Origin: a virus
Lineage: Duplodnaviria; Heunggongvirae; Uroviricota; Caudoviricetes
Reading direction: 5' to 3' (one strand)
Length of the DNA: 7,571 bases
IMG/VR virus record: IMGVR_UViG_2529293138_000004
Coordinates: 1 to 7,571 of that record
The position numbers and the translations under genes were made by a program. The notes under the pieces are model-generated. The model was not told where the DNA came from and did not search any database. It saw nothing but the letters and a program-made list of their open reading frames with translations. Below, piece after piece: positions 1 to 7,571 of this stretch; position 1 is the first letter of the stretch, and each line of letters starts with the position of its first letter.

Positions 1-1230
1 ATGAGCAGAGCACTTAACAAACTGAGTGATACACAGCTAAGGAAAATCAACGGCACACCCGCCCAAAAAACAGCCTTTCTTAATGACGGTGGAAACCTGA
101 GCGTCAGGCATTCAACCAGCGGCCTTTTAACCTGGTATTTCACTTACAGGGCCGGAACGGGAAGGGGGGCACCACCGGAACGCATTAAGCTGGGAAATTA
201 TCCTGATCTGAGCCTGAAATCAGCCAGGGAAAAAGCCGCCCAGTGTCGCGCATGGCTGGCTGAGGGGAAAAATCCACGTCATGAGATGAATTACACCGTA
301 CAGGAAGCGTTAAAGCCGGTAACGGTTGGCGATGCGCTCACCTACTGGCTTGAGTCGTACGCAAAGGAAAACCGCGTGGATTATGCCGCCCTGAAAAAGC
401 GCCTTAATAATCACGTAATACAGCACATTGGTGCTATGCCGCTGGATAAATGCGAGCTACGGCACTGGCTGGCCTGTTTTGACCAGGTGGCAAAGCGAAC
501 GCCTGTTACTGCCGGATTCTTGCTACAGACGTGCAAACAGGCGCTTAAGTTCTGCCGGAGGCGGCGCTATGCAATCAGCAACGTTCTTGATGATATGAGT
601 GTGGCGGACGTTGGGAAAAAACCGGATATAAGCGAGCGTGTCTTAAGCACCAAAGAACTGGGCGAATTATTGCAGGCTCTGGACAAAAAAATATTCTCCC
701 CCTACTACATCGCGTTAATCCGCCTCCTGATTGTTTTCGGATGCCGGACGGTAGAACTGAGGTTATCGGAGATCAGCGAGTGGGATTTTACCGAAATGCT
801 CTGGACCGTGCCGAAAGAACACAGCAAAACGAAGGTGGCAATATTCCGGCCCATACCGGAAGCAATACTGCCGTTCGTCACGCAGCTGGTGGAGCAGAAC
901 AGGCACACGGGCTTATTGCTGGGGGAAGTGAAACAGGAAACAAGCGTGTCGCAGTACGGCAGATTAGCGCACAGGAGGCTAAAACACCCTCACTGGTCAC
1001 TGCATGACATCCGGCGCACCTTTACAACGATGCTGAACGATTTAGGCGTGGATCCTCACGTCGTGGAGCAGCTTACAGGTCATCAGATGCCAGGGATGCA
1101 ACGAGTCTATAACCATTCCCGTTATCTGGATGCGAAACGTGACGCGCTGGATATGTGGACGGAGCGGTTAGGGATACTGGCGGGAACACATGAAAACGTA
1201 ACTACCTTGCCAATAGCCAGAGAAATATAA
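1..1230 (+). CDS. int: Tyrosine recombinase / phage integrase, P4-like family (409 aa)
   Basis: ORF 1-1230. N-terminal arm-type DNA-binding region (LSDTQLR..DGGNL..WYFTYR..KLGNYPDLSLKSAREKA), catalytic box I Arg (FGCRTVEL), HDIRRTF (H-x-x-R) and C-terminal Tyr (RVYNHSRYLD). The window starts exactly at the ATG, so the true 5' end and the attachment site upstream cannot be verified. Confidence 0.9.
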   Translation: MSRALNKLSDTQLRKINGTPAQKTAFLNDGGNLSVRHSTSGLLTWYFTYRAGTGRGAPPERIKLGNYPDLSLKSAREKAAQCRAWLAEGKNPRHEMNYTVQEALKPVTVGDALTYWLESYAKENRVDYAALKKRLNNHVIQHIGAMPLDKCELRHWLACFDQVAKRTPVTAGFLLQTCKQALKFCRRRRYAISNVLDDMSVADVGKKPDISERVLSTKELGELLQALDKKIFSPYYIALIRLLIVFGCRTVELRLSEISEWDFTEMLWTVPKEHSKTKVAIFRPIPEAILPFVTQLVEQNRHTGLLLGEVKQETSVSQYGRLAHRRLKHPHWSLHDIRRTFTTMLNDLGVDPHVVEQLTGHQMPGMQRVYNHSRYLDAKRDALDMWTERLGILAGTHENVTTLPIAREI

Positions 1231-1590
1231 TTTTTTTTGCGATTTTTCAGGATGCGGACAACGTGAAACAACTAGACACAACGACGAACAACAAGGAACA
1301 AAATGGAACAACGGGTTAAAAATTAGCCATCGTGATAACCATTTGATTTTTATAGGTGTACTGTTTTTTTATACACTGGCGAATCACTCTTAAAAATATG
1401 TAAAAAAGGCGTAAAAGTAAAATTTTATGCCTTTGCATCATAATGAATTAAAAGAGTTTTTATTCTCATTCCCCCTGCTTCTGTAAAACGACCTCCGCCA
1501 GTGTTTGCCATTCCACAAACACCCTGACACAATCAGACACAACCCAATAATCCACCCAATGACTCTTTAATAAACAACAAAGGGGGAATT
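1231..1590 (+). promoter_or_regulatory. AT-rich int-alpA intergenic region with phased A/C-rich direct repeats; presumed alpA promoter/operator region
   Basis: GGAACAA at 1295-1301 and 1305-1311; GACACAA at 1275-1281, 1526-1532 and 1536-1542 (two pairs phased at 10 bp); AT-rich stretch 1380-1460 with -10-like hexamers. No promoter position could be fixed confidently. Confidence 0.3.
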
Positions 1591-1779
1591 GTGTTAAGCA
1601 CAGATCGCTTTATACGTGAAAAAGAATGTCAGCAACTTACAGGCCTGAGCCGCTCATGTCGGTACCGCCTGGAAAAAGCCGGACAATTTCCATCACGGCG
1701 TAAGCTCGGCGGTCGTTCCGTTGGCTGGTCTTTATCCGAAGTTCTGGCATGGAAGGACAGCTGCGAGGCAGTTCACTAA
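1591..1779 (+). CDS. alpA: AlpA/Vis-family prophage transcriptional regulator (62 aa, GTG start)
   Basis: GTG at 1591 preceded by AGGGGGAA Shine-Dalgarno (1581-1588). Helix-turn-helix signature LTGLSRSCRYRLEKAGQFP..KLGGRSVGWSLSEVLAW is typical of AlpA-type regulators found next to P4-like integrases. Confidence 0.85.
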   Translation: MLSTDRFIREKECQQLTGLSRSCRYRLEKAGQFPSRRKLGGRSVGWSLSEVLAWKDSCEAVH

Positions 1780-1785
1780 TCAGGC

Positions 1786-1804
1786 TGGCGGCACACAGCC
1801 GCCA
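1786..1804 (+). other. GC-rich hairpin (7-bp stem TGGCGGC/GCCGCCA, 5-nt loop) just after alpA; no U-tract
   Basis: Perfect inverted repeat 1786-1792 / 1798-1804; the following sequence is not T-rich, so it is not a canonical intrinsic terminator. Confidence 0.3.
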
Positions 1805-1831
1805 CCCATCCACTAATACAGAGATCTAACC

Positions 1832-2131
1832 ATGAATACTGGATATTCTCCCGAACAAGGGCGGGGCTTCGTTCGTCCTGAAAAACAGAATCTGCAAAAT
1901 TTTGCCGAAATTATTCCGGTTATTTCCGGCCTTACTGGCGGGAGTGAAACCAATATTGTTAACGACAGAGCGTTGCAGATGTTTGATGATAAAAAGGGAG
2001 TAAATTTAACTTACACCCCTGACGGCAATCAGAATATGAGCATTATCTCTGAGTCAGGTTTCTACAAACTAATAAAAACAAAAAGCGCCCCGTTGCCGGA
2101 GCGCCTTTGTGAACAATTAACCTGCTGCACA
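1832..2131 (+). pseudogene. BRO-N domain-like ORF (antirepressor-associated N-terminal domain); no in-frame stop until 3232, likely frameshifted or degraded
   Basis: Residues ~20-95 (NIVNDRALQMFDDKKGVNL..GNQNMSIISESGFYKLIKTKSAPLPERL) match the BRO-N pattern (..LDDDEKG....MTVINESGLYSLILRSRKPEAKKF..). Downstream the same frame becomes Cys/Ser-rich low-quality sequence antisense to a better small gene. An A8 tract at 2201-2208 lies inside the ORF; removing one A would terminate at TGA 2232-2234. Confidence 0.4.
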
Positions 2132-2319
2132 AAAAATAAATATGAGCAGTGGGATTATATCATCCAGGTGACGAAGCGCCACAATTGCCGGATAACAGGC
2201 AAAAAAAAGGCGACCGCAAAATGGTCGCCAGTGAGAACAAAGGAAATCAAACGCGTCACCAACAATGCCACATTTGCGGCTGGTGGGCAATGTGATCAGT
2301 GTGCTGGCTTGCTGGTGGG

Positions 2320-2499
2320 CTATTCCTGTTCTTTGGCCTTGCGACGCTGGCGGCGTTTGATCTCGCCTTTTGCGGCAGTAACTAAAAAACCAGCGGTACT
2401 TTCGCCAGGTTCTTTAAGTTGCTCAATATCATCCATTACTTCATGTGGGATTCTGACAGTTGTCATTTGTGATTTTGCGTTCTTTGCACCAGTTGCCAT
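2320..2499 (-). CDS. Small ribbon-helix-helix (Arc/CopG-like) putative DNA-binding protein, 59 aa
   Basis: Minus-strand ATG (complement of 2497-2499) preceded by AGGAG at 8-nt spacing; product MATGAKNAKSQMTTVRIPHEVMDDIEQLKEPGESTAGFLVTAAKGEIKRRQRRKAKEQE has an RHH-like beta-strand (TVRIP) followed by two helices. The longer track ORF (to 2667) adds a non-protein-like extension. Confidence 0.5.
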   Translation of the reverse strand: MATGAKNAKSQMTTVRIPHEVMDDIEQLKEPGESTAGFLVTAAKGEIKRRQRRKAKEQE

Positions 2500-2566
2500 T
2501 TCTGGATCTCCTAAAAATTGGTGTATGCCAGTATACGCAAAAAAAATGATAAAAAAAGGCTTGAAG

Positions 2567-2611
2567 TGTATTTCACCAGTGAGTAAATTAAAAAGCAAAG
2601 GTGAAATACAC
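2567..2611. promoter_or_regulatory. Perfect 12-bp inverted repeat GTGTATTTCACC / GGTGAAATACAC with 21-bp spacer; candidate operator upstream of the RHH gene
   Basis: Arms at 2567-2578 and 2600-2611; a third GTGTAT half-site at 2521-2526; a -10-like TATACT on the minus strand (complement of 2527-2532) between the repeat and the RHH start. Confidence 0.4.
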
Positions 2612-2764
2612 CTAAAAGAGCAACGCCCCGCAGTGCTCGCAACACATGCAGGGCGTCTAACCACCAACGATAGAAAGAGTATCGAGGTAGCTATGAGAAA
2701 TCATACCACACACCCGCAAGGGCGGGACTCGCACAACCTGAATAAAGCGGGTATGAAAAACCTG

Positions 2765-2794
2765 TTGATCGCCACTGCCAGCCAGGGCTATGAT
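2765..2794 (+). promoter_or_regulatory. Candidate sigma70 promoter (TTGATC-N18-TATGAT) facing the icd-like region
   Basis: -35-like TTGATC 2765-2770, 18-nt spacer, -10-like TATGAT 2789-2794. Sequence match only. Confidence 0.3.
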
Positions 2795-2856
2795 TCATGT
2801 GCACCTCATAAAACGGGTGCCGGGATTACCACCCCGCTGATGTCCAGGGCGATACA

Positions 2857-2878
2857 GACGCCGCACGCGTCTTTTTTT
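2857..2878 (+). terminator. Intrinsic terminator-like hairpin (GACGC-cgcac-GCGTC) followed by T7
   Basis: Stem 2857-2861 / 2867-2871, then TTTTTTT 2872-2878. It sits in the leader between the candidate promoter and the structured RNA/icd region. Confidence 0.5.
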
Positions 2879-2907
2879 GTATCGGCGCACACGCACACCT
2901 TAACAAT

Positions 2908-2987
2908 GGTGGGCTGTACGGGGCCGACTTCGGTCGGGCTGGTCACCTTGGACGCCAGTTGTGGTAACCCTGTACAGTCCACCGCCA
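2908..2987 (+). ncRNA. Candidate tRNA-like structured RNA (P1 c4 / P4 CI antisense-RNA-like) immediately upstream of the first Icd-like ORF
   Basis: 12-bp closing stem 2908-2919 (GGTGGGCTGTAC) with 2972-2983 (GTACAGTCCACC, one G-U) followed by GCCA (2984-2987), enclosing a cUUCGg tetraloop hairpin (2924-2937) and a second hairpin (2941-2969). Structure is by eye, not computed. Confidence 0.3.
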
Positions 2988-3043
2988 GCGAGCTTACCAC
3001 CTCCGGCGGTGGGGATATCCCAACGTCTAAGGAGGCTGCCAAC

Positions 3044-3232
3044 ATGGCTACTACGCCTACCCTTATACATTCTCAAACTGCCTTTATCTGGCGCTTTATC
3101 ATCTTTGGCGCGTCAGAATCCCAAATCATCCACGTCACCGCCTGGACAGAACGCGAAGCGCGTAACCATTGCCCGTCCGGTTGTGTCGCTGTATTCGCCG
3201 CCCGTATTCGTCAGGGGTCACATCATGCTTAA
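3044..3232 (+). CDS. Icd-like small protein (host cell-division-inhibitor Icd / Ash-family-like), copy A, 62 aa
   Basis: ATG 3044 preceded by AAGGAGG (3029-3035). Product MATTPTLIHSQTAFIWRF...TEREARNH...VFAARIRQGSHHA, with the W-R-F ... TERE ... FAARIR pattern recalled for Icd-like proteins of P4-type elements. A longer in-frame annotation (from ATG 2906) is possible, but the strong internal SD favours the short form. Confidence 0.65.
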   Translation: MATTPTLIHSQTAFIWRFIIFGASESQIIHVTAWTEREARNHCPSGCVAVFAARIRQGSHHA

Positions 3233-3518
3233 AAACCGCTTGCAAAAAATTATCACGGGGCTGTATGCTTCCCCCGTCGCCCACATGGCGACCGGGTTTG
3301 ACAGCCTGAATAACATAGCGGACAGCCGCTTATATTCCGATATGCGGTTTTTTTGTGTCCGTAAACCTACCCATACCCGCATTATGGCGGGGCGTAACGG
3401 GGGAGCCTTTGCGCTCGCTGGTTTCTATGTTGCCAGTCTGTCAACCCTGTTACGTCTCGCCACCATGTTTGACAGCGTAGTAGCGAGACTCCTTACATCA
3501 AACATAGGAGCCTTTCAC

Positions 3519-3689
3519 ATGGCTGTATCCGCACGCCCTTACTTTGTCTGGCGCTTTATGCAGTGCCAGGAAAAACAAACCTCACTCTTTACCGTCACGG
3601 CAACAACAGAACGCGAAGCCCGCGCCCAGTTGCCGTACGCCCATCTGATTTTCGCCGCCCGTATTCGTCAGGAGGTGTGCCATGATTAA
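3519..3689 (+). CDS. Icd-like small protein, copy B (paralog of 3044-3232), 56 aa
   Basis: ATG 3519 preceded by AGGAG (3506-3510). Product MAVSARPYFVWRF...TEREARAQ...IFAARIRQEVCHD. Exact 22-bp repeat TTCGCCGCCCGTATTCGTCAGG at 3194-3215 and 3651-3672, and ACAGAACGCGAAGC shared with copy A. An in-frame upstream ATG at 3225 gives an alternative 154-aa form. Confidence 0.65.
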   Translation: MAVSARPYFVWRFMQCQEKQTSLFTVTATTEREARAQLPYAHLIFAARIRQEVCHD

Positions 3690-4038
3690 CCTGTCACTTA
3701 TCGACCTTAACCGCATCCAGTTTCGTGAGAAATTTACCTGGCAGCTACTGGTCAATGTAGAGAATGGACGCGTGGTAAGTAATTATCACCTGCCGGATGG
3801 TGCAATTGCCGGAAGCGTTGAAGCATTGCTGGAGCTGGCAGAACGTGCGCGACTGATTAAGCCGTTAACGTGCCATCACGATGATGATCTGCATTTTACC
3901 GGACGTATGATGAGCAATTATGAAAACGGCGTTGAAGCATCCCGCGAACGTCTGCATGATGATTACTGTTTCGGCACATTGCCGGAATTTATCGAATTGC
4001 TGACCAGTTGCGGTTATCAGGTCATTCAGGGGGGGTAA
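3682..4038 (+). CDS. Hypothetical protein, 118 aa
   Basis: ATG 3682 overlaps the icdB stop (ATGATTAA) and is preceded by AGGAGG (3671-3675), indicating translational coupling. Position after c4/icd matches the ant slot of P1 immI, but no motif was recognised. Confidence 0.75.
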   Translation: MINLSLIDLNRIQFREKFTWQLLVNVENGRVVSNYHLPDGAIAGSVEALLELAERARLIKPLTCHHDDDLHFTGRMMSNYENGVEASRERLHDDYCFGTLPEFIELLTSCGYQVIQGG

Positions 4039-4040
4039 AC

Positions 4041-4292
4041 ATGCGTGATGATCGTTTTAATTCCCTGAAACAGGAATTTTCCGGCGTGTCTTATGATGCG
4101 GGTGATGCGCTTTTATCAATATCTGAAATTATGCGGGTGGCTTTTTTCTTTCTTTGCACTGATGAGCACAGGGATACAGGACTAAATATTCTTGATATCG
4201 CCTCTGATTATGCTGATTACGTGGCTGAATTTAATTTAAGAGAAAAACAGTTATTACGCGAACAGAATAAAACGCCTTCCACCGGAGAATAA
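4041..4292 (+). CDS. Hypothetical protein, 83 aa
   Basis: ATG 4041 two nt after the upstream stop, preceded by a G-rich SD (4028-4035). The track's longer form starts at TTG 4008 inside the upstream gene and is less likely. Confidence 0.6.
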   Translation: MRDDRFNSLKQEFSGVSYDAGDALLSISEIMRVAFFFLCTDEHRDTGLNILDIASDYADYVAEFNLREKQLLREQNKTPSTGE

Positions 4293-4297
4293 AAATA

Positions 4298-4585
4298 ATG
4301 AAACTTAAATATTCTGGCTTAACTGCCAGCGGCACCGCTCGGCCTGAAATCCGTAACGGCGATATTTACCGCGATAAATATGGCGGCATGGTAACGATTA
4401 AAGGCGTGGCAGAACGGCGCATCACCTACCGCCGTGAAGGTTACGAATATGATTGCGTGATGCCTGTTTATCAATTCCGGCGTGATTTCACGCTGGTAGG
4501 CCATCGTAAAGCCGTTAATCAGAAACGTGCAACAGGTTATATCCGCAAAATCCGTGAAATGCTGGTCGCAGGGGGTAAGAAATGA
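4298..4585 (+). CDS. Hypothetical small protein, 95 aa (tentatively DUF4222-like: YRD and GxV motifs)
   Basis: ATG 4298 with GGAGA upstream; contains IYRDKYGGMVTIKGV. The family assignment is from memory and is low-certainty. Confidence 0.7.
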   Translation: MKLKYSGLTASGTARPEIRNGDIYRDKYGGMVTIKGVAERRITYRREGYEYDCVMPVYQFRRDFTLVGHRKAVNQKRATGYIRKIREMLVAGGKK

Positions 4586-5979
4586 AACTGGCACCGAACG
4601 TAAAACGATTACCGAAAGATAAATACACCGATGCGATTATTTTTGCGGGTATTGATGCTCACTCATTCGCAGAGCATTACATCATTGCACAGGCCAAAAA
4701 AGCAGGCGATCCAGTCCCTCCCGTTTATCTGGGGCGTTATCAGTTAAGCGAACTGGATAACCTCCAGATTGTTGATGATGGGCGATACAGGGCGACGGTG
4801 ATACGCGCCGGAAATATTGAAGAGCCGCAGCTGTTAACCATCGCCACGAAACTGGCGATCGCCGGAGTCCAGGAGGCGCGGCTACTTTCTGAAAATTTCG
4901 AATTGCTGGAGGAATGGAGCGACCAGCTTCCACGGCTTAGGGAGACATGGGAACGCGGGGAAAGCCTGAGCAACCAGCGAAAAACCACGCTACCAATGAG
5001 CGTGGGATCTGCCGGATACGACACACAACTTGATTACGTGGTTAAGGGAATTATTCCGGCTGTATCGCTTTGCAGCATATACGGGGCGAGCGGTTCCTAT
5101 AAATCATTCCTTGCCGGATCGTGGGCGTGTCACGTTTCCACTGGCCGCCAGTGGGGATGCCGCAGGGTGGCGCATGGCGCTGTTCTCTATGTGGTTGGTG
5201 AAGGCGGTATCGGCGTTCCTCGTCGTGTAAAAGCCTGGGAGGTTGTGCACGGTGAGCAGGTGAAAAATCTGTATCTGGTAAACCGTCCCATCTTTCCGGC
5301 TGCCCCGCTTGATGTTGATGAAATGGTTATCGCTGCCCGTCAGGTGGAACGGGAAACGGGTAAACCTGTACGCATGATTATTCTGGATACGCTGGCGCGG
5401 TGCTTTGGTGGCAATGATGAAAATGATTCCCGTGATATGGGGGCGTTTATCCGTGGGTGTGACGAACTGAAACGACGCACAGGGGCCACGGTGCTGGTGG
5501 TTCACCATTCCGGCAAGGATGAAACAAAGGGAGCGCGTGGTTCCAGTGCATTTCGTGCTTCGCTGGATGCTGAATACCGGATACGCAGGGAGGACGCAGG
5601 AAGCGAAGCCCTGGTTATCTCATGCACCAAAATGAAGGATGCGGAGGAACTCAAAGAAGCCGCATATGACTTACGCGTGGTGGAGCTTTTTACCGACGCT
5701 GACGGGGAGTTAATCACGTCGCTGGTGGTGGTGGATAAGCCGCGCCCTCCCGTTGAACTGGAGCGCATCGAGGAGGCTGGCAACAAGACGGAAAACCATA
5801 CCGCGCTATGGGGATGCATACGTTCACGCACACAGAACGGCGACAAGTGCACGATCCCGCTGTTACGTGATGACATGAAAAAACTGGGGTACGAAATGAA
5901 AAACTTCCGGCGCTGGCTGTACAAGCTGGAAAAAGACAGGGTTATTCGTATCGATGGGGATGATGTAGCGCCGCTATAA
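4582..5979 (+). CDS. RecA-fold replicative ATPase/helicase-like protein (AAA_25 / RepA-like), 465 aa
   Basis: ATG 4582 overlaps the upstream stop (ATGA). P-loop region IYGASGSYKSFLAG, Walker B/sensor region MIILDTLARCFGGNDENDSRDMGAFIRGCDELKRRTGATVLVVHHSGKD, matching the pattern of AAA_25 family replication helicases. N-terminal ~150 aa unassigned; no primase domain evident. Confidence 0.85.
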   Translation: MKLAPNVKRLPKDKYTDAIIFAGIDAHSFAEHYIIAQAKKAGDPVPPVYLGRYQLSELDNLQIVDDGRYRATVIRAGNIEEPQLLTIATKLAIAGVQEARLLSENFELLEEWSDQLPRLRETWERGESLSNQRKTTLPMSVGSAGYDTQLDYVVKGIIPAVSLCSIYGASGSYKSFLAGSWACHVSTGRQWGCRRVAHGAVLYVVGEGGIGVPRRVKAWEVVHGEQVKNLYLVNRPIFPAAPLDVDEMVIAARQVERETGKPVRMIILDTLARCFGGNDENDSRDMGAFIRGCDELKRRTGATVLVVHHSGKDETKGARGSSAFRASLDAEYRIRREDAGSEALVISCTKMKDAEELKEAAYDLRVVELFTDADGELITSLVVVDKPRPPVELERIEEAGNKTENHTALWGCIRSRTQNGDKCTIPLLRDDMKKLGYEMKNFRRWLYKLEKDRVIRIDGDDVAPL

Positions 5980-6156
5980 AGTGAGGTGCAAAAGCGAGGT
6001 GTATAGAAGGAGGGCCAAAATTAGACCGCTACCCCTCACTTTTCGGCCTGTATACATCCTCAAAAGTGAGGGGCAAAAAAATACTTATGAAACACACACA
6101 TAGAAAAAGCGAAAATCTCAAGCGAGACGGAGCCAGACACTTTAAAAAGTGAGGCG
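5978..6156. repeat. Iteron array AAAG(T/C)GAGG(T/G)G (direct and inverted copies) with an AT-rich stretch; candidate replication origin
   Basis: Copies at 5978-5988, 5991-6001, 6062-6073, 6144-6156, inverted copy 6032-6043 (forming a 12-bp inverted repeat with 6062-6073), and degenerate copies at 6104-6115 and 6119-6130. Lies directly downstream of the replication ATPase gene. Confidence 0.5.
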
Positions 6157-6178
6157 AAAAACTGAGAGTTTGCGAGAA

Positions 6179-6430
6179 ATGAACAAAATGCGTAGAGACA
6201 GAACAGAGCCAAAATATAAAGCGTTAGACATGACAGAGCACGCTTTAAAGGTGGCAATCAGAACGATAGACCGCCACGCGGGGGAAGGATACGCGAAGGA
6301 ACATCCCGACATGATAAGCGCATTCATGACCACAGCAGCGGCAAACTTTGCCACGCTGACAGAACGGGAGATTGCCGAAGCGGAACAGGTAACAACCATC
6401 AACGTTAAAACCGGAGAGCAGACAGCATGA
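6179..6430 (+). CDS. Hypothetical protein (~83 aa; start ambiguous among GTG 6149, ATG 6179, 6188, 6230)
   Basis: ORF ends with a TGA overlapping the ATG of the SSB gene (ATGA at 6427-6430), suggesting coupling; no recognisable motif and weak SD candidates. Confidence 0.5.
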   Translation: MNKMRRDRTEPKYKALDMTEHALKVAIRTIDRHAGEGYAKEHPDMISAFMTTAAANFATLTEREIAEAEQVTTINVKTGEQTA

Positions 6431-6933
6431 CAGCACAGATAGCGGCTTACGGACGGCTGGTGGCTGACCCGCAGTTAAAGACCACCAGCAAGGGTACACA
6501 AATGACGATGGCGAGTATGGCGGTCCCCCTTCCGTGCAGCCAGGCAGATGACGGAGCGGCGACGATGTGGTTATCCGTCATGGCGTTTGGCAGACAGGCC
6601 GACGCACTGGCAAAACACCACAAAGGCGAACTGGTGAGCGTGGCGGGTAACATGCAGGTAAGTCAGTGGACAGGCCAGAACGGCGAAACGCGGCAGGGCT
6701 GGCAGGTTATCGCAGACAGCATAATCAGTGCGAGAACGGCGCGACCTGGCGGCAAAAAAGGCCAGCAGGGGCAGGCTACTGATGCACTGAACAGGGCAAA
6801 ACAACAGGCGGGTAACGATGATCCGTACGGGATAACATACCGTTTTAAGCAACGAGTAACAGAAGCCGGAGAAGTCCGGCTTTTTTATGCCCCAAAAAAA
6901 GCCCGGAGGGTCTTATCGGGCTTTTGCATATGA
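6427..6933 (+). CDS. ssb: Single-stranded DNA-binding protein (SSB-like OB fold), 168 aa with atypical C-terminus
   Basis: GGAGAG SD at 6414-6419. The pattern IAAYGRLVADPQLKTT..MWLSVMAFGRQADALAKHHKGELVSVAGNMQVSQWTGQNGETRQGWQVIADSI parallels E. coli SSB ([66 protein letters not shown]). The C-terminal ~25 codons read through two terminator-like hairpins. Confidence 0.8.
   Translation: MTAQIAAYGRLVADPQLKTTSKGTQMTMASMAVPLPCSQADDGAATMWLSVMAFGRQADALAKHHKGELVSVAGNMQVSQWTGQNGETRQGWQVIADSIISARTARPGGKKGQQGQATDALNRAKQQAGNDDPYGITYRFKQRVTEAGEVRLFYAPKKARRVLSGFCI
6865..6886 (+). terminator. Intrinsic terminator (GCCGGA-gaag-TCCGGC followed by T6)
   Basis: Stem 6865-6870 / 6875-6880, loop 6871-6874, T-tract 6881-6886; located inside the 3' end of the SSB ORF as currently delimited. 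Confidence 0.6.
6898..6924. terminator. Second hairpin (AAAGCCCG...CGGGCTTT) flanked by an A-tract and a T-tract; possible bidirectional terminator
   Basis: Stem 6898-6905 / 6917-6924 with an 11-nt loop; A7 upstream would provide a U-tract for minus-strand transcripts. Confidence 0.35.
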
Positions 6934-7003
6934 GGTTTTTTTGGTGCGCTGACACACATGATCGGGATAATAATTTCATAATTTGCAACATAACTCAATA
7001 TTA

Positions 7004-7052
7004 TTGCACAAAATGCAATCATGATTATAATCATGACTGGATGAACATCCAG
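7004..7052 (+). promoter_or_regulatory. Consensus-like sigma70 promoter (TTGCAC-N16-TATAAT) with overlapping palindromic operators
   Basis: -35 at 7004-7009; perfect -10 TATAAT at 7026-7031 sitting at the centre of a perfect 18-bp palindrome TCATGATTATAATCATGA (7019-7036); a second inverted repeat CTGGATG-aa-CATCCAG at 7037-7052 around the expected transcription start. Confidence 0.5.
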
Positions 7053-7087
7053 TTATGATTTTTTAAGTCGAAGAGGAATTTCTTACT

Positions 7088-7270
7088 ATGGCTGAAGAGA
7101 AAAAAGGCGGTGTTTCGGTGTACATAAGCTCCGACATCGTGGAGGCGCTCAAGGAACGCCACCAGCAGAACGTAAAGCAGGCATTGCGGCAGGACTTGAT
7201 CCACTGGCGATGGTTGAGCCGTCAACAGGCTGGCAGGTGCGCGCCTATTTACGTGCGGCGCTGGGCATGA
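7088..7270 (+). CDS. Small protein upstream of the capsid gene (60 aa as an intact ORF; possible frameshifted ~68-aa product ending at 7293)
   Basis: ATG 7088 with GAGG upstream. The N-terminal half uses preferred codons in this frame; from about 7170 the other forward frame (ending TAA 7291-7293, abutting the capsid ATG) uses preferred codons (AGIAAGLDPLAMVEPSTGWQVRAYLRAALGMNQTHGGE), while the original frame turns Arg/Trp-rich. Confidence 0.4.
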   Translation: MAEEKKGGVSVYISSDIVEALKERHQQNVKQALRQDLIHWRWLSRQQAGRCAPIYVRRWA

Positions 7271-7293
7271 ATCAGACTCATGGGGGTGAATAA

Positions 7294-7571
7294 TGGCAGG
7301 CAAAGCAACGGCACTTACCACTAATCAGCTTTTCACGTACATGAATCGCGGGGATATTGCGGAATTTAAATTCAGTCCGCTGTTTACCACGCTGTTTTTC
7401 CCGAACGTGGCGACATTCAGCACCCAAAACATCATGCTGGATACCCTGGACATTGAAGAAGTCACTATGTCGGCGTTTTGTTCGCCTATGGTTGGCAGCC
7501 AGGTACAGCGCGATAAAGGGTACGAAACCAGCACAATCAAACCTGGCTACATGAAGCCAAAGCACGAAATC
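7294..7571 (+). CDS. Major capsid protein, lambda gpE family (N-terminal 92 codons; truncated by window end)
   Basis: ATG 7294 preceded by GGGGG (7282-7286). Translation MAGKATALTTNQLFTYMNRGDIAEFKFSPLFTTLFFPNVATFSTQNIMLDTLDIEEVTMSAFCSPMVGSQVQRDKGYETSTIKPGYMKPKHEI parallels lambda E (..FKFDPLFLRLFF..VNMALYVSPIVSGEVIRSRGGSTSEFTPGYVKPKHEV). Not in the supplied ORF track because it has no stop within the window. Confidence 0.85.

Follow-up and report, generated by a model that had tools for sequence, protein, structure and literature searches.

Results and discussion

Gene content and layout of the region

The window, by which is meant the whole 7,571-nucleotide stretch that was analysed (positions 1 to 7,571 of IMG/VR record IMGVR_UViG_2529293138_000004), has the gene content of a satellite: int, alpA, and genes for a RepA-like helicase, SSB and a putative capsid protein. 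When the window ORFs were searched, AlpA was matched at 3e-18 and the integrase was also matched. The capsid-E ORF at 7293 is truncated and reached 22.0 bits against a threshold of 22.9; homologous loci bear an annotated major capsid protein. The ends of the island lie beyond the window. PICIs of the capsid-forming type were defined as elements of about 10-15 kb with an integrase, AlpA, a replication module and their own capsid gene in one orientation.

A YlcI/YnfO-like gene on the minus strand (2320-2508) is strongly supported. It is followed by two short Icd-like ORFs, icd1 and icd2, each preceded by a leader RNA and an RNA of the C4 antisense family (C4-1 and C4-2). Downstream of icd2 the operon continues with an ORF at 3682-4038, then DUF4222, a RepA-like AAA_25 helicase (4582-5979) and SSB. 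The ORF at 3682-4038 gave no match to Ant, Bro, KilA or Rha in Pfam, NCBIfam or PHROGs. The module appears to belong to a satellite of the PICI type. It precedes replication genes and has no ant, so that in function it is closer to P4 immunity than to immI of P1.

The features are listed below. Seeds within the C4 RNAs are called a' and b', and their targets a1 and b1 (upstream) and a2 and b2 (downstream).

2561-2616, plus strand: candidate upstream regulated promoter (TTGAAG 2561-2566, 17 nt, TAAATT 2584-2589)
2693-3232, plus strand: long ORF-A, 179 aa, with Shine-Dalgarno GAGG at 2684-2687; ends as icd1
2765-2794, plus strand: predicted unit-1 internal promoter (TTGATC 2765-2770, 18 nt, TATGAT 2789-2794)
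2801-2877, plus strand: unit-1 leader RNA of the isrK / P4-seqA type (Rfam RF01394; 65 bits, gathering score 50)
2826-2832, plus strand: unit-1 a1, TTACCAC, in a hairpin loop of the leader
2841-2849, plus strand: unit-1 b1, TGTCCAGGG, complementary to C4-1
2856-2872 plus T-run, plus strand: predicted unit-1 intrinsic terminator (terminator scan, fold)
2902-2989, plus strand: C4-1 antisense RNA (Rfam RF01695, 75.3 bits, full length 1-87)
2943-2954, plus strand: C4-1 b' loop, UCACCUUGGACG
2961-2967, plus strand: C4-1 a' bulge, GUGGUAA
2994-3000, plus strand: downstream target a2 of C4-1, TTACCAC
3024-3035, plus strand: downstream target b2 of C4-1, CGTCTAAGGAGG, including the icd1 Shine-Dalgarno
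3044-3232, plus strand: icd1, Icd-like ORF, 62 aa (NCBIfam NF033153, E 2e-16, 59.8 bits)
3225-3689, plus strand: long ORF-B, 154 aa, in frame with icd2 and overlapping the icd1 stop
3240-3269, plus strand: candidate unit-2 internal promoter (TTGCAA, 18 nt, TATGCT)
3263-3356, plus strand: P1-type leader of unit 2 (Rfam c4-a1b1 RF03163 at 3263-3312; 46.8 bits, gathering score 46.7)
3298-3304, plus strand: unit-2 a1, TTGACAG
3311-3318, plus strand: unit-2 b1, TAACATAG
3319-3356, plus strand: weak terminator-like hairpin of unit 2 plus T7 run (fold; missed by the terminator scanner)
3380-3467, plus strand: C4-2 antisense RNA (Rfam RF01695, 73.2 bits, full length 1-87)
3422-3432, plus strand: C4-2 b' loop, UUUCUAUGUUG
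3438-3444, plus strand: C4-2 a' bulge, CUGUCAA, identical to a' of P1 and D6
3469-3475, plus strand: downstream target a2 of C4-2, TTGACAG
3501-3510, plus strand: downstream target b2 of C4-2, AACATAGGAG, including the icd2 Shine-Dalgarno
3519-3689, plus strand: icd2, Icd-like ORF, 56 aa (NCBIfam NF033153, E 1.7e-15, 56.8 bits)

The candidate promoter at 2561-2616 is flanked by a 17-nt inverted repeat (2561-2577 / 2600-2616) and is divergent from the YlcI/YnfO-like gene. At the same position the related locus L002 has a TTGACG/TAAATT promoter flanked by GTGTTCAACAC repeats. With a consensus score of 8/12, below the threshold of the scanner, the site in the window is a candidate for an upstream regulated promoter.

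Two antisense RNA units in series

A preliminary description of the window had noticed a promoter-like site, a terminator hairpin, a structured RNA candidate and an Icd-like ORF, with the RNA and ORF recurring about 455 bp downstream. All of these elements were found again. The promoter-like site at 2765-2794 is the sole sigma-70 match in 2300-4100, in a scan that returned fewer promoter-like sites than were found in shuffles, and it aligns with TTGACT...TATATT of Stx2a phage. The hairpin was detected by the terminator scan, and the structured RNAs were identified as Rfam C4, cmsearch placing both units well over the gathering score of 45. The recurrence is real but the distance is not fixed at 455 bp, being 457-478 nt depending on the landmark.

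Scored with a model made for this analysis, C4-1 and C4-2 gave 91.4 and 81.8 bits. Their fold z-scores are -4.08 and -6.61 respectively, and for each RNA 0/200 shuffles folded equally well. In the alignment of C4s 96.7% of cells are paired, against 39-51% in slid controls, and 11 pairs show compensatory changes; the C4 fold score was reached by 0/500 shuffles. An RCCA-like motif follows the stem at the 3' side in both cases (GCCA after the acceptor-like stem of C4-1, ACCA in C4-2), and by analogy the C4s may be RNase P substrates, processed to stable RNAs that repress in trans.

Both Icd-like ORFs match NF033153, the curated cut-off of which is 25 bits, and icd1 could be aligned with Icd of P1, P7 and D6. 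The exact repeats already noticed between the units (22 bp at 3194-3215 and 3651-3672; 14 bp at 3146-3159 and 3606-3619) are real, and both fall where the conserved Icd motifs FAARIRQ and TEREA are encoded. So is the duplicated junction: at ATGCTTAA the icd1 stop (TAA 3230-3232) is overlapped by the ORF-B ATG at 3225, and at ATGATTAA the icd2 stop (TAA 3687-3689) is overlapped by the start codon (ATG 3682) of the ORF that follows.

Identity restricted to the coding repeats, which the preliminary description had named as evidence against its reading, is what the exact repeats show. It does not extend to the homology, as the RNA genes of both units fit one covariance model and one layout of target sites. 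A MAFFT alignment gave a unit-to-unit nucleotide identity of roughly 55-60% with few exact blocks. Such low identity points to an old, diverged duplication or to the assembly of two different cassettes, and not to a recent copy.

The units are in tandem, as proposed, but they are not copies of each other. Unit 1, with its isrK leader, is of the P4/Stx-phage-like type; its scaffold is 83% identical to that of Stx2a Oslovirus phages, in which the C4 precedes a Rha-family gene. Unit 2 is P1-like, being about 80% identical to the c4 regions of P1, D6 and P7, and its match to isrK (3276-3354, 36.5 bits) is below threshold. The candidate unit-2 promoter, which also has a consensus score of 8/12 and is below the scanner threshold, probably corresponds to the mapped P1 promoter P1c4/P51b, to which its position is homologous, as it is to that of the unit-1 promoter; its hexamers are kept across unit-2 copies. 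The idea that unit 2 is a decayed remnant was rejected, since none of its parts is damaged and they vary in concert from locus to locus.

These results make it probable that the region consists of two complete P4/P1-type antisense-RNA immunity modules in series, heading the early (replication) operon of a PICI-type satellite.

Specificity of the two C4 RNAs

Each C4 has its own a' and b' seeds and perfect-match targets for them, a1/b1 upstream and a2/b2 downstream, and units 1 and 2 have no specificity in common. The summed duplex energy of C4-1 is -22.8 kcal/mol with its own targets and -8.1 kcal/mol with those of the other unit; the corresponding values for C4-2 are -18.0 and -11.7 kcal/mol. 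The modules use different seeds, and no cross-reaction between them is predicted. Within the window the a and b sites of each unit occur at the expected positions only, apart from two lone 7-mers.

The preliminary description had seen TTTGACAGC at 3297-3305 and 3468-3476, with an inverted partial copy near 3438-3444, and had likened it to the repeated target sites of P4 immunity. The copies are there and the likeness is correct: the two direct copies are a1 and a2 of unit 2, and the inverted one is a' of C4-2. The further suggestion of dual or altered immunity specificity is supported at sequence level, the two units having differing a' and b' seeds, each with cognate targets. The recognition sites of unit 1 (a1, b1, a', b', a2 and b2) had been overlooked.

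Across about 70 related C4 loci hardly anything changes in the scaffold, whereas seeds and targets change together without exception. In 66/66 full-length C4s (at least 60 loci) a' and b' are matched by a1/b1 upstream and a2/b2 downstream at fixed offsets, and the near-invariant scaffolds carry at least 8 different a' and about 15 different b' sequences. Variation falls precisely on seed and target nucleotides, and their flanks are invariant, synonymous sites included. In the two genomes examined for co-resident units, no seed occurred twice.

The resemblance to phages might suggest that the P1-like unit 2 is aimed at P1-family or other helper or competitor phage and serves helper sensing or interference, not self-immunity: C4-2 would repress the icd-ant operon of the phage, or a phage C4 would repress the satellite. 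The identity of unit 2 with P1, D6 and P7 c4 and the a' shared with P1 and D6 are in keeping with this, as are the 83% identity of the unit-1 scaffold with Stx2a Oslovirus phages and the b' of C4-1, which is the same as that of a second C4 in the P1-like phage vB_EcoM-673R5. However, each unit has just one seed in common with these phages: unit 2 has a b' unlike those of P1, P7 and D6, and unit 1 has an a' unlike those of all phages examined. An exact search of IMG/VR with the combined seeds of C4-1 returned one satellite-sized contig and no phage, and with those of C4-2 no contig; an identical C4 is absent from 5,426 E. coli genomes, in which the best matches are 97.7% (C4-1) and 93.2% (C4-2). 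Each unit, moreover, has its full target set in cis. As no phage with the same C4 specificities was found in these searches, helper cross-talk is given little weight and is considered very improbable.

Long stop-free frames

Both units lie within long open frames. ORF-A is open through the internal promoter, the isrK leader, C4-1 and the target sites, and its frame is open back to 1817/1832, just 3' of alpA. Between 2693 and 3043 there are 0 in-phase stops compared with 6 and 5 in the other frames (P=0.034). ORF-B is open through the unit-2 leader, C4-2 and the targets, with 0 stops compared with 5 and 6 (P=0.016), and the in-phase frame of the intergenic region is also stop-free (P 0.014). 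On the opposite strand this long open frame contains the YlcI/YnfO-like gene, so that any translation start assigned to the long form is tentative. An ordinary protein gene was also considered for the 466-aa ORF (1832-3232), but its N-terminal part has only a fragmentary Bro-N/Ant-like match and the YlcI/YnfO-like gene runs antisense within it. In L002 the ATG of ORF-A begins a short C4-less icd, relative to which 2747-3082, the unit-1 cassette, is an in-frame insertion of 336 nt.

The in-phase frame through the C4 is open in the window and in essentially all PICI loci, whereas it is closed in P1, P7 and D6. Even in PICI loci with an 89-nt C4 it is still open, the +1 nt being offset by -1 nt elsewhere. 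The scaffold of unit 2 diverges very little among loci, and this accounts in part for its open frame.

Searches with Icd and Ash models, which had been suggested as a check, gave a divided result. NF033153 recognised both icd ORFs and, within the long frames, residues 131-174 of ORF-A and 107-149 of ORF-B. Pfam Phage_ASH (PF10554) recognised neither icd ORF and nothing in unit 2: the only match was to the translation of the unit-1 isrK leader and C4 in the icd phase (residues 36-126 of ORF-A), with 35.8 bits against a gathering threshold of 26, and there was none for icd1, icd2 or ORF-B. Pfam as a whole gave no match for ORF-B, icd1, icd2 or the translation of 3225-3521. In P4 the Phage_ASH model covers the CI RNA region, and a literature search found no paper equating the Pfam Ash family with the C4/CI RNA region.

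It could be argued from the stop-free frames, and from the matches of Phage_ASH and NF033153 to their translations, that the region is simply protein-coding, comprising duplicated Ash/Icd-family genes of which the RNA-family matches are a side effect. PGAP does annotate 'Icd-like' proteins of 154 to 546 aa across homologous regions, the 154-aa homologue of ORF-B in L001-L003 included. The compensatory changes in the C4 stems and the co-variation of each seed with two distant target pairs, on the other hand, have no protein-level explanation. Variation is also restricted to seed and target nucleotides, between flanks that do not change even at synonymous sites. The long translations are non-protein-like in composition upstream and contain no domain but Ash/Icd. 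P1 C4, according to its annotation, and P4 CI, according to PMC10111431, are experimentally established RNAs. A purely protein-coding region is thus scarcely credible. Dual use, as RNA and as translated frame, has a precedent in P4 and is included in the two-module explanation.

Recurrence and origin of tandem units

Tandem units are present in 10/80 IMG/VR loci and in at least 22/5,426 E. coli genomes. One locus, L093, has three units in series, all of different specificity. A scan of a collection of genome contigs with the Icd alignment matched only three loci, all from Morganella, and was uninformative on this point.

The tandem arrangement might be a neutral by-product of cassette shuffling, in which satellites and phages exchange immunity cassettes by recombination in conserved icd segments (the FIWRF and FAARIRQ codons) and unequal crossover occasionally leaves two or three units, the extra unit being mere redundancy. 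The distribution is mosaic, one backbone being found with one, two or three units, or with a C4-less icd followed by unit 2, and the closest whole-window relatives (93% identity) differ precisely in the immunity region. The 22-bp repeat at the 3' end of both icds is also the point of divergence of the single-unit relative L022, which has the same unit-1 seeds, and two identical Icd proteins in L093 (WP_096293585.1) suggest a recent duplication. Against neutrality, no unit of any array has lost a part: the scaffold is whole, a1/b1/a2/b2 are cognate, the Shine-Dalgarno and ATG are present and the frame is open. Decayed second units were not seen. Units within an array, those of L093 included, always differ in specificity, which is unexpected from simple duplication. 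Cassette shuffling explains the origin of the arrays and is compatible with their proposed function as serial locks; that the extra units are merely redundant appears unlikely.

Comparison with known systems

The P4 replication operon is controlled by premature transcription termination, which is relieved by translating a long ORF. Gene order in the window agrees with such control, a mechanism established for P4 alone. The immunity region of P4 comprises the PLE promoter, seqA, CI RNA/seqB, seqC and the nested kil/eta genes. P4 itself was analysed and has the same anatomy once, with 60.8 bits for isrK and 74.9 bits for C4; in its ORF137 Phage_ASH covers the RNA and the C-terminus is Icd-like (NF033153, 7.8e-21). 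Unit 1 resembles P4 in its isrK-type leader with a1/b1 at the same hairpin-loop position, its strong terminator, and its C4-family RNA in a stop-free Phage_ASH frame with an Icd-like C-terminal ORF. The position of the module, 3' of an alpA/vis homologue and 5' of satellite replication genes, is also that of P4. P4 has a single unit, whereas the window has two serial units that differ in specificity; its replication protein is a RepA-like AAA_25 helicase and not an alpha primase; and the element has a putative capsid gene, which would make it a capsid-forming PICI and not a P4-like element. Searches of the ORFs 3' of icd2 gave no match to P4 epsilon. The regulation of P4 by nested eta/kil translation is summarised in PMC10111431, and by analogy ORF-A can be read as an Eta-like nested-gene arrangement, with the ORFs chained by ATG/stop overlaps like P4 eta/kil.

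Unit 2 has the layout of P1 immI: promoter, a1, b1, weak terminator, C4, a2, b2/SD and icd. The heteroimmunity pattern of P1 and P7, in which seeds and targets co-vary, is seen across the satellite copies. Unit 2 is distinguished from P1/P7 immI by the absence of an ant gene after icd and from P1, P7 and D6 by its b' seed. The alignment of unit 2 with P1 differs upstream of a1, and the function of a1/b1 in P1 is given as 'putative' in the P1 annotation.

A third relative is the isrK-orf45-anrP region of Gifsy-1 in Salmonella, where an isrK leader with its own terminator is likewise followed by a C4-like stable RNA (STnc1160) and translation of a small ORF is coupled to that of the gene after it (PMC4825925). 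There, short and read-through isoforms arise from one promoter, and the short form of IsrK activates translation in trans and does not repress (PMC4825925). The output of Gifsy-1, in contrast, is an antirepressor/antiterminator cascade, and the unit is single and belongs to a prophage, not a satellite (PMC4825925).

Mageeney et al. (2023), whose scope was Gram-negative and helper-embedded PICIs, reported that the Rfam C4 and isrK profiles match the 'Bro zone' of several PICIs, and suggested that Bro zones provide immunity as in P4 (PMC10111431). Tandem arrays, the specificities of serial units and seed-target co-variation in satellites are not mentioned in the available text (PMC10111431). A literature search found no account of tandem or heterospecific C4 units in satellites. 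Serial heterospecific C4 units in satellites thus appear to be undescribed, although C4/isrK matches in PICIs are already in print.

Proposed mechanism

By extension from P1 and P4, each internal promoter in the quiescent island would constitutively make its own C4, processed from the transcript. The C4 would pair with a2/b2 and a1/b1 on nascent transcripts, and this pairing would block translation of icd and trigger premature termination, either intrinsic or Rho-dependent. The downstream replication genes would then stay off, as a transcript would have to clear two independent locks.

Induction would require transcription from an upstream regulated promoter, either one after alpA or the operator-flanked candidate near 2561-2616. 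Transcription from there would permit translation of ORF-A from the ATG at 2693 or from farther 5'. Ribosomes would cross the leader, terminator, C4-1 and targets, preventing RNA-RNA pairing and termination, end translation at TAA 3230 and begin again at ATG 3225 of ORF-B, which overlaps that stop. Unit 2 would be traversed in the same manner, with a further restart at ATG 3682. A chain of translationally coupled nested genes may in this way override both locks, as Eta translation does in P4. Two heterospecific units are likely to give a tighter off state together with dual immunity toward incoming elements that carry either target set. The two-module model is read from the DNA, and its transcripts, processing, termination and translation are all predicted.

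Conclusions

C4/CI antisense RNAs are textbook phage immunity factors, described as single units. It is put forward tentatively that enterobacterial satellites bear a combinatorial, fast-diversifying RNA 'immunity code' and that orthogonal arrays of two or three units are serial replication locks, opened only by a relay of coupled nested ORFs and giving one island exclusion of several rival satellite immunity types. The code would consist of two short seeds on an invariant C4 scaffold, each mirrored in target sites, four in all. If this is true, it would be an RNA-based analogue of multi-specificity immunity, of a kind not described for P1, P4 or PICIs. If the serial units are independent locks, the replication genes of the satellite would be under layered, RNA-only repression that is released by translation, a compact natural design for orthogonal riboregulators. 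The variants described here also form a ready-made natural library, with at least 8 a' and about 15 b' seeds on two or three fixed scaffolds and targets validated by co-variation.

In PGAP and Pfam the C4 RNA genes appear as proteins, named 'Icd-like' or 'Ash family', with no RNA annotation, so that these regulatory RNAs are invisible in thousands of genomes. The diversity of their seeds could explain how several related satellites share one E. coli genome and do not repress each other.

Results and discussion

The window appears to be the left part (7.6 kb) of a PICI-type phage satellite, in which a single plus-strand gene train begins after a YlcI/YnfO-like gene and has the immunity region at its head. 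Related islands were found in 2,006 of 5,426 complete E. coli genomes, with 93% backbone identity for the best match, and none of the 5,426 covered more than 80% of the window.

Genes of the satellite
1–1230, tyrosine integrase
1591–1779, AlpA (Pfam, 3e-18)
2320–2508, minus strand, YlcI/YnfO-like gene (NCBIfam, 1e-17)
3682–4038 and 4041–4292, plus strand, ORFs downstream of icd2
4298–4585, plus strand, DUF4222
4582–5979, plus strand, AAA_25/RepA-like helicase
6427–6933, plus strand, SSB
From 7293, plus strand, capsid-E-like gene (only its start within the window)

A preliminary description had placed a tandemly duplicated P1 immI/P4-like immunity module at 2765–3689. Rfam, NCBIfam, a promoter/terminator scan and a repeat search recovered every feature that it listed: the structured RNA candidates are C4 antisense RNAs (C4#1 and C4#2), both above the gathering score, both Icd-like ORFs match NF033153, the scanner picked up the promoter-like site and the terminator, and the exact 22-bp and 14-bp repeats and duplicated ATG/TAA overlap junctions (3225 and 3682) are in place. 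From the mapped unit-2 sites, the TTTGACAGC repeats, likened earlier to P4 target sites, are what C4#2 recognises as a1 and a2, and their inverted copy is its a' seed.

Features of units 1 and 2 (P1 nomenclature of the P1 RefSeq annotation; a' and b', C4 seeds; a1/b1 and a2/b2, upstream and downstream targets; GS, Rfam gathering score)
Promoter: 2765–2794 (scanner match); 3240–3269 (candidate, positional homologue of P1 P51b)
Leader: isrK, 2801–2877 (65 bits, GS 50); c4-a1b1, 3263–3312 (46.8, GS 46.7)
a1: TTACCAC, 2826–2832; TTGACAG, 3298–3304
b1: TGTCCAGGG, 2841–2849; TAACATAG, 3311–3318
Terminator: 2856–2879 (scanner match 2856–2872); 3319–3356 (weak hairpin and T7 run)
C4: 2902–2989 (75.3 bits, GS 45); 3380–3467 (73.2 bits, GS 45)
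b' loop: 2943–2954; 3422–3432
a': GUGGUAA, 2961–2967; CUGUCAA, 3438–3444
a2: 2994–3000; 3469–3475
b2, covering the Shine-Dalgarno sequence: 3024–3035; 3501–3510
icd: icd1, 3044–3232 (NF033153, 2e-16); icd2, 3519–3689 (1.7e-15)

Both C4 RNAs fold far better than shuffled sequences (z-scores −4.1 for C4#1 and −6.6 for C4#2); an isrK match in unit 2 (3276–3354) was sub-threshold in Rfam. Predicted duplex energies (a and b summed) were −22.8 kcal/mol for C4#1 on its own downstream targets versus −8.1 on those of unit 2, and −18.0 for C4#2 on its own versus −11.7 on those of unit 1; cognate pairs were likewise favoured at the leader targets. Two complete sets of C4 and targets, predicted not to cross-react, can be read from the sequence, with b2 on the ribosome-binding site of each icd.

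Nucleotide identity between the units is low overall, and to judge from the alignments they are different cassettes. Unit 1, with its isrK-type leader, shares 81–84% identity with the C4 region of Stx2a Oslovirus phages and with that of a second C4 in the P1-like phage vB_EcoM-673R5; for unit 2 and the c4 regions of P1, P7 and D6 the figure is 77–83%. In both phage alignments it is the seed and target nucleotides that differ, in concert, on a conserved scaffold. The short icd of the homologous locus L002 has the same start codon (ATG 2693 in the window); compared with it, the unit-1 cassette is an insertion of 336 nt that keeps the frame, and unit 1 resembles a cassette that entered a C4-less icd gene without shifting its frame. 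A first Icd-like ORF with neither C4 nor isrK upstream, followed by a P1-type unit, was seen in L002 (4067–4270), L048–L057, L061 and L063; as many islands have such a C4-less first icd, Icd-like ORFs exist also without an RNA partner. In the Stx2a phage L004 (2529–3389), and in H127–H134, the 5' part of a Rha-family regulator ORF (Phage_ASH plus Phage_pRha in Stx-converting phages) contains a unit-1-type isrK/C4 element, so that RNA immunity is fused there to a different downstream effector.

Two C4s 477–478 nt apart were found in 10 of 80 IMG/VR loci and in the homologous loci L001 and L003. The C4#1-to-C4#2 span was covered to at least 80% in at least 22 of the 5,426 E. coli genomes, and the unit-2 scaffold was present in 142. 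Loci also occur with one unit, with icd alone, or with unit 2 behind a C4-less icd. E. coli 2012C-4502 (L093, 3206–4641) has a series of three C4-icd units, each with its own seed pair; two of its Icd proteins are identical (WP_096293585.1), which indicates that duplication was recent, with seed replacement as a later or accompanying step. Units within every array differ in both seeds, and in two genomes, with two islands examined in each, all seed pairs were different.

Recombination in conserved icd segments may have produced the array, with the 22-bp repeat marking such a junction; this would explain where the units came from, but not why all of them are intact and differ from one another. 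The exact repeats (3194–3215/3651–3672 and 3146–3159/3606–3619) fall within codons of conserved Icd motifs and have no synonymous differences over 7 and 4–5 codons; the Icd proteins are only 43% identical, and the sites of exact repetition vary in other loci. This suggests gene conversion or a junction left by recombination, and speaks against a fixed constraint on the nucleotides.

C4 RNAs were counted with Rfam and a covariance model built here, over the 80 loci that an Icd alignment recovered from IMG/VR and over other loci, giving 68 matches (66 full-length and two cut by contig ends). Covariation supports the C4 fold, with 96.7% of cells paired (slid controls, 39–51%) and compensatory changes at 11 pairs, and contradicts a purely protein-coding reading of the region. 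Perfect 7-nt a1 and a2 complements of the own a' accompanied all 66 full-length C4s, as did b1 and b2 complements of the own b' (7–12 nt, at fixed offsets), across at least eight a' and about 15 b' variants. Twelve copies of unit 2 were near-invariant outside the six patches that hold seeds and targets. Short of selection for RNA–RNA recognition whose specificity shifts, as it has between P1 and P7, such a pattern is difficult to account for. A more divergent third scaffold (63 bits) with the P4 a' seed UUCUCAC was seen in L094 (2940–3107) and L097 (1940–2107), directly preceded 5' by a weak C4-like match (19 bits) that may be a degenerate head-to-tail copy.

The exact seed pairs of the window were found in no phage in IMG/VR and in none of the 5,426 genomes. 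Helper-phage targeting finds no support, since among the phages examined a match never extends beyond one of the two seeds.

The C4/CI RNA, isrK/seqA leader and Icd/Kil are known parts, and PMC10111431 notes their occurrence in Gram-negative PICIs. In the literature searched, no account turned up of heterospecific units arranged in series, of how diverse seeds and targets are among satellites, or of these RNA genes being covered by Pfam Ash and PGAP "Icd-like" annotations. Phage_ASH matches the translated isrK and C4#1 region (2798–3071) and, in P4 (L095), that of the CI RNA region (1830–2022); PF10554 corresponds to a conceptual translation of the isrK/C4 (P4 CI) RNA locus. PGAP calls such stretches "ash family protein" or "Icd-like protein", in many cases as a pseudogene, with no RNA annotated. 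P4 also scores for isrK (60.8 bits) and C4 (74.9 bits), and its ORF137 (the old "cI product") has an Icd-like C-terminus (7.8e-21). In P4, as described in PMC10111431, transcripts from a constitutive promoter inside eta are terminated by CI/seqA pairing and Kil is the short, nested product; only transcripts of an upstream late promoter give full-length Eta, coupled to the alpA homologue, and its translation prevents termination. By this resemblance, the nested-gene design of P4 is present twice in the window.

Read in the phase of the respective icd, the leader and C4 of both units are free of stop codons.

Stop codons in the icd frame and the other two frames (P from dinucleotide shuffles)
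2693–3043: 0; 6 and 5; P 0.034
3225–3518: 0; 5 and 6; P 0.016
2509–2692: 0; 8 and 4; P 0.014

The unit-1 frame is open back to 1817, directly after alpA (1817–3232, 471 stop-free codons), crossing the antisense YlcI/YnfO-like gene and the intergenic operator region before ending in icd1. The frame through C4 is open in essentially all satellite loci, including those whose C4 has one extra nucleotide, compensated by the loss of 1 nt elsewhere; it is not open in P1, P7 or D6. Open frames in relatives reach 819 codons (L013); their composition is not protein-like and Ash is their only domain, and PGAP sometimes labels long frames as "Icd-like" proteins of 418–546 aa (L096, L098). Possibly, stops are selected against to keep the way from alpA to the replication genes open for ribosomes. 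The two long ORFs (from ATG 2693 and ATG 3225) and the next gene are chained by the overlaps at 3225 and 3682; on sequence grounds the ORFs are nested, coupled and stop-free, and they lie ahead of the replication genes.

Proposed mechanism

By analogy with P1 and P4, the C4 RNAs would be made constitutively and then processed. The a1/b1 sites might serve as decoys, act in termination as in P4, or activate as IsrK does in Gifsy-1 (PMC4825925). A 17-nt inverted repeat (2561–2577/2600–2616) flanks a weak promoter in the divergent intergenic region 2509–2692, and L002 has three GTGTTCAACAC repeats at the equivalent position; from these, the small YlcI/YnfO-like protein is suggested to repress the rightward operon, a protein layer above the RNA locks. 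Its gene, antisense inside the long frame, bears on the candidate translation starts of the long form. Blocked icd translation with polar termination would place two serial locks on the quiescent island, to be overridden by translation of the long ORFs once an upstream, helper-responsive promoter fires.
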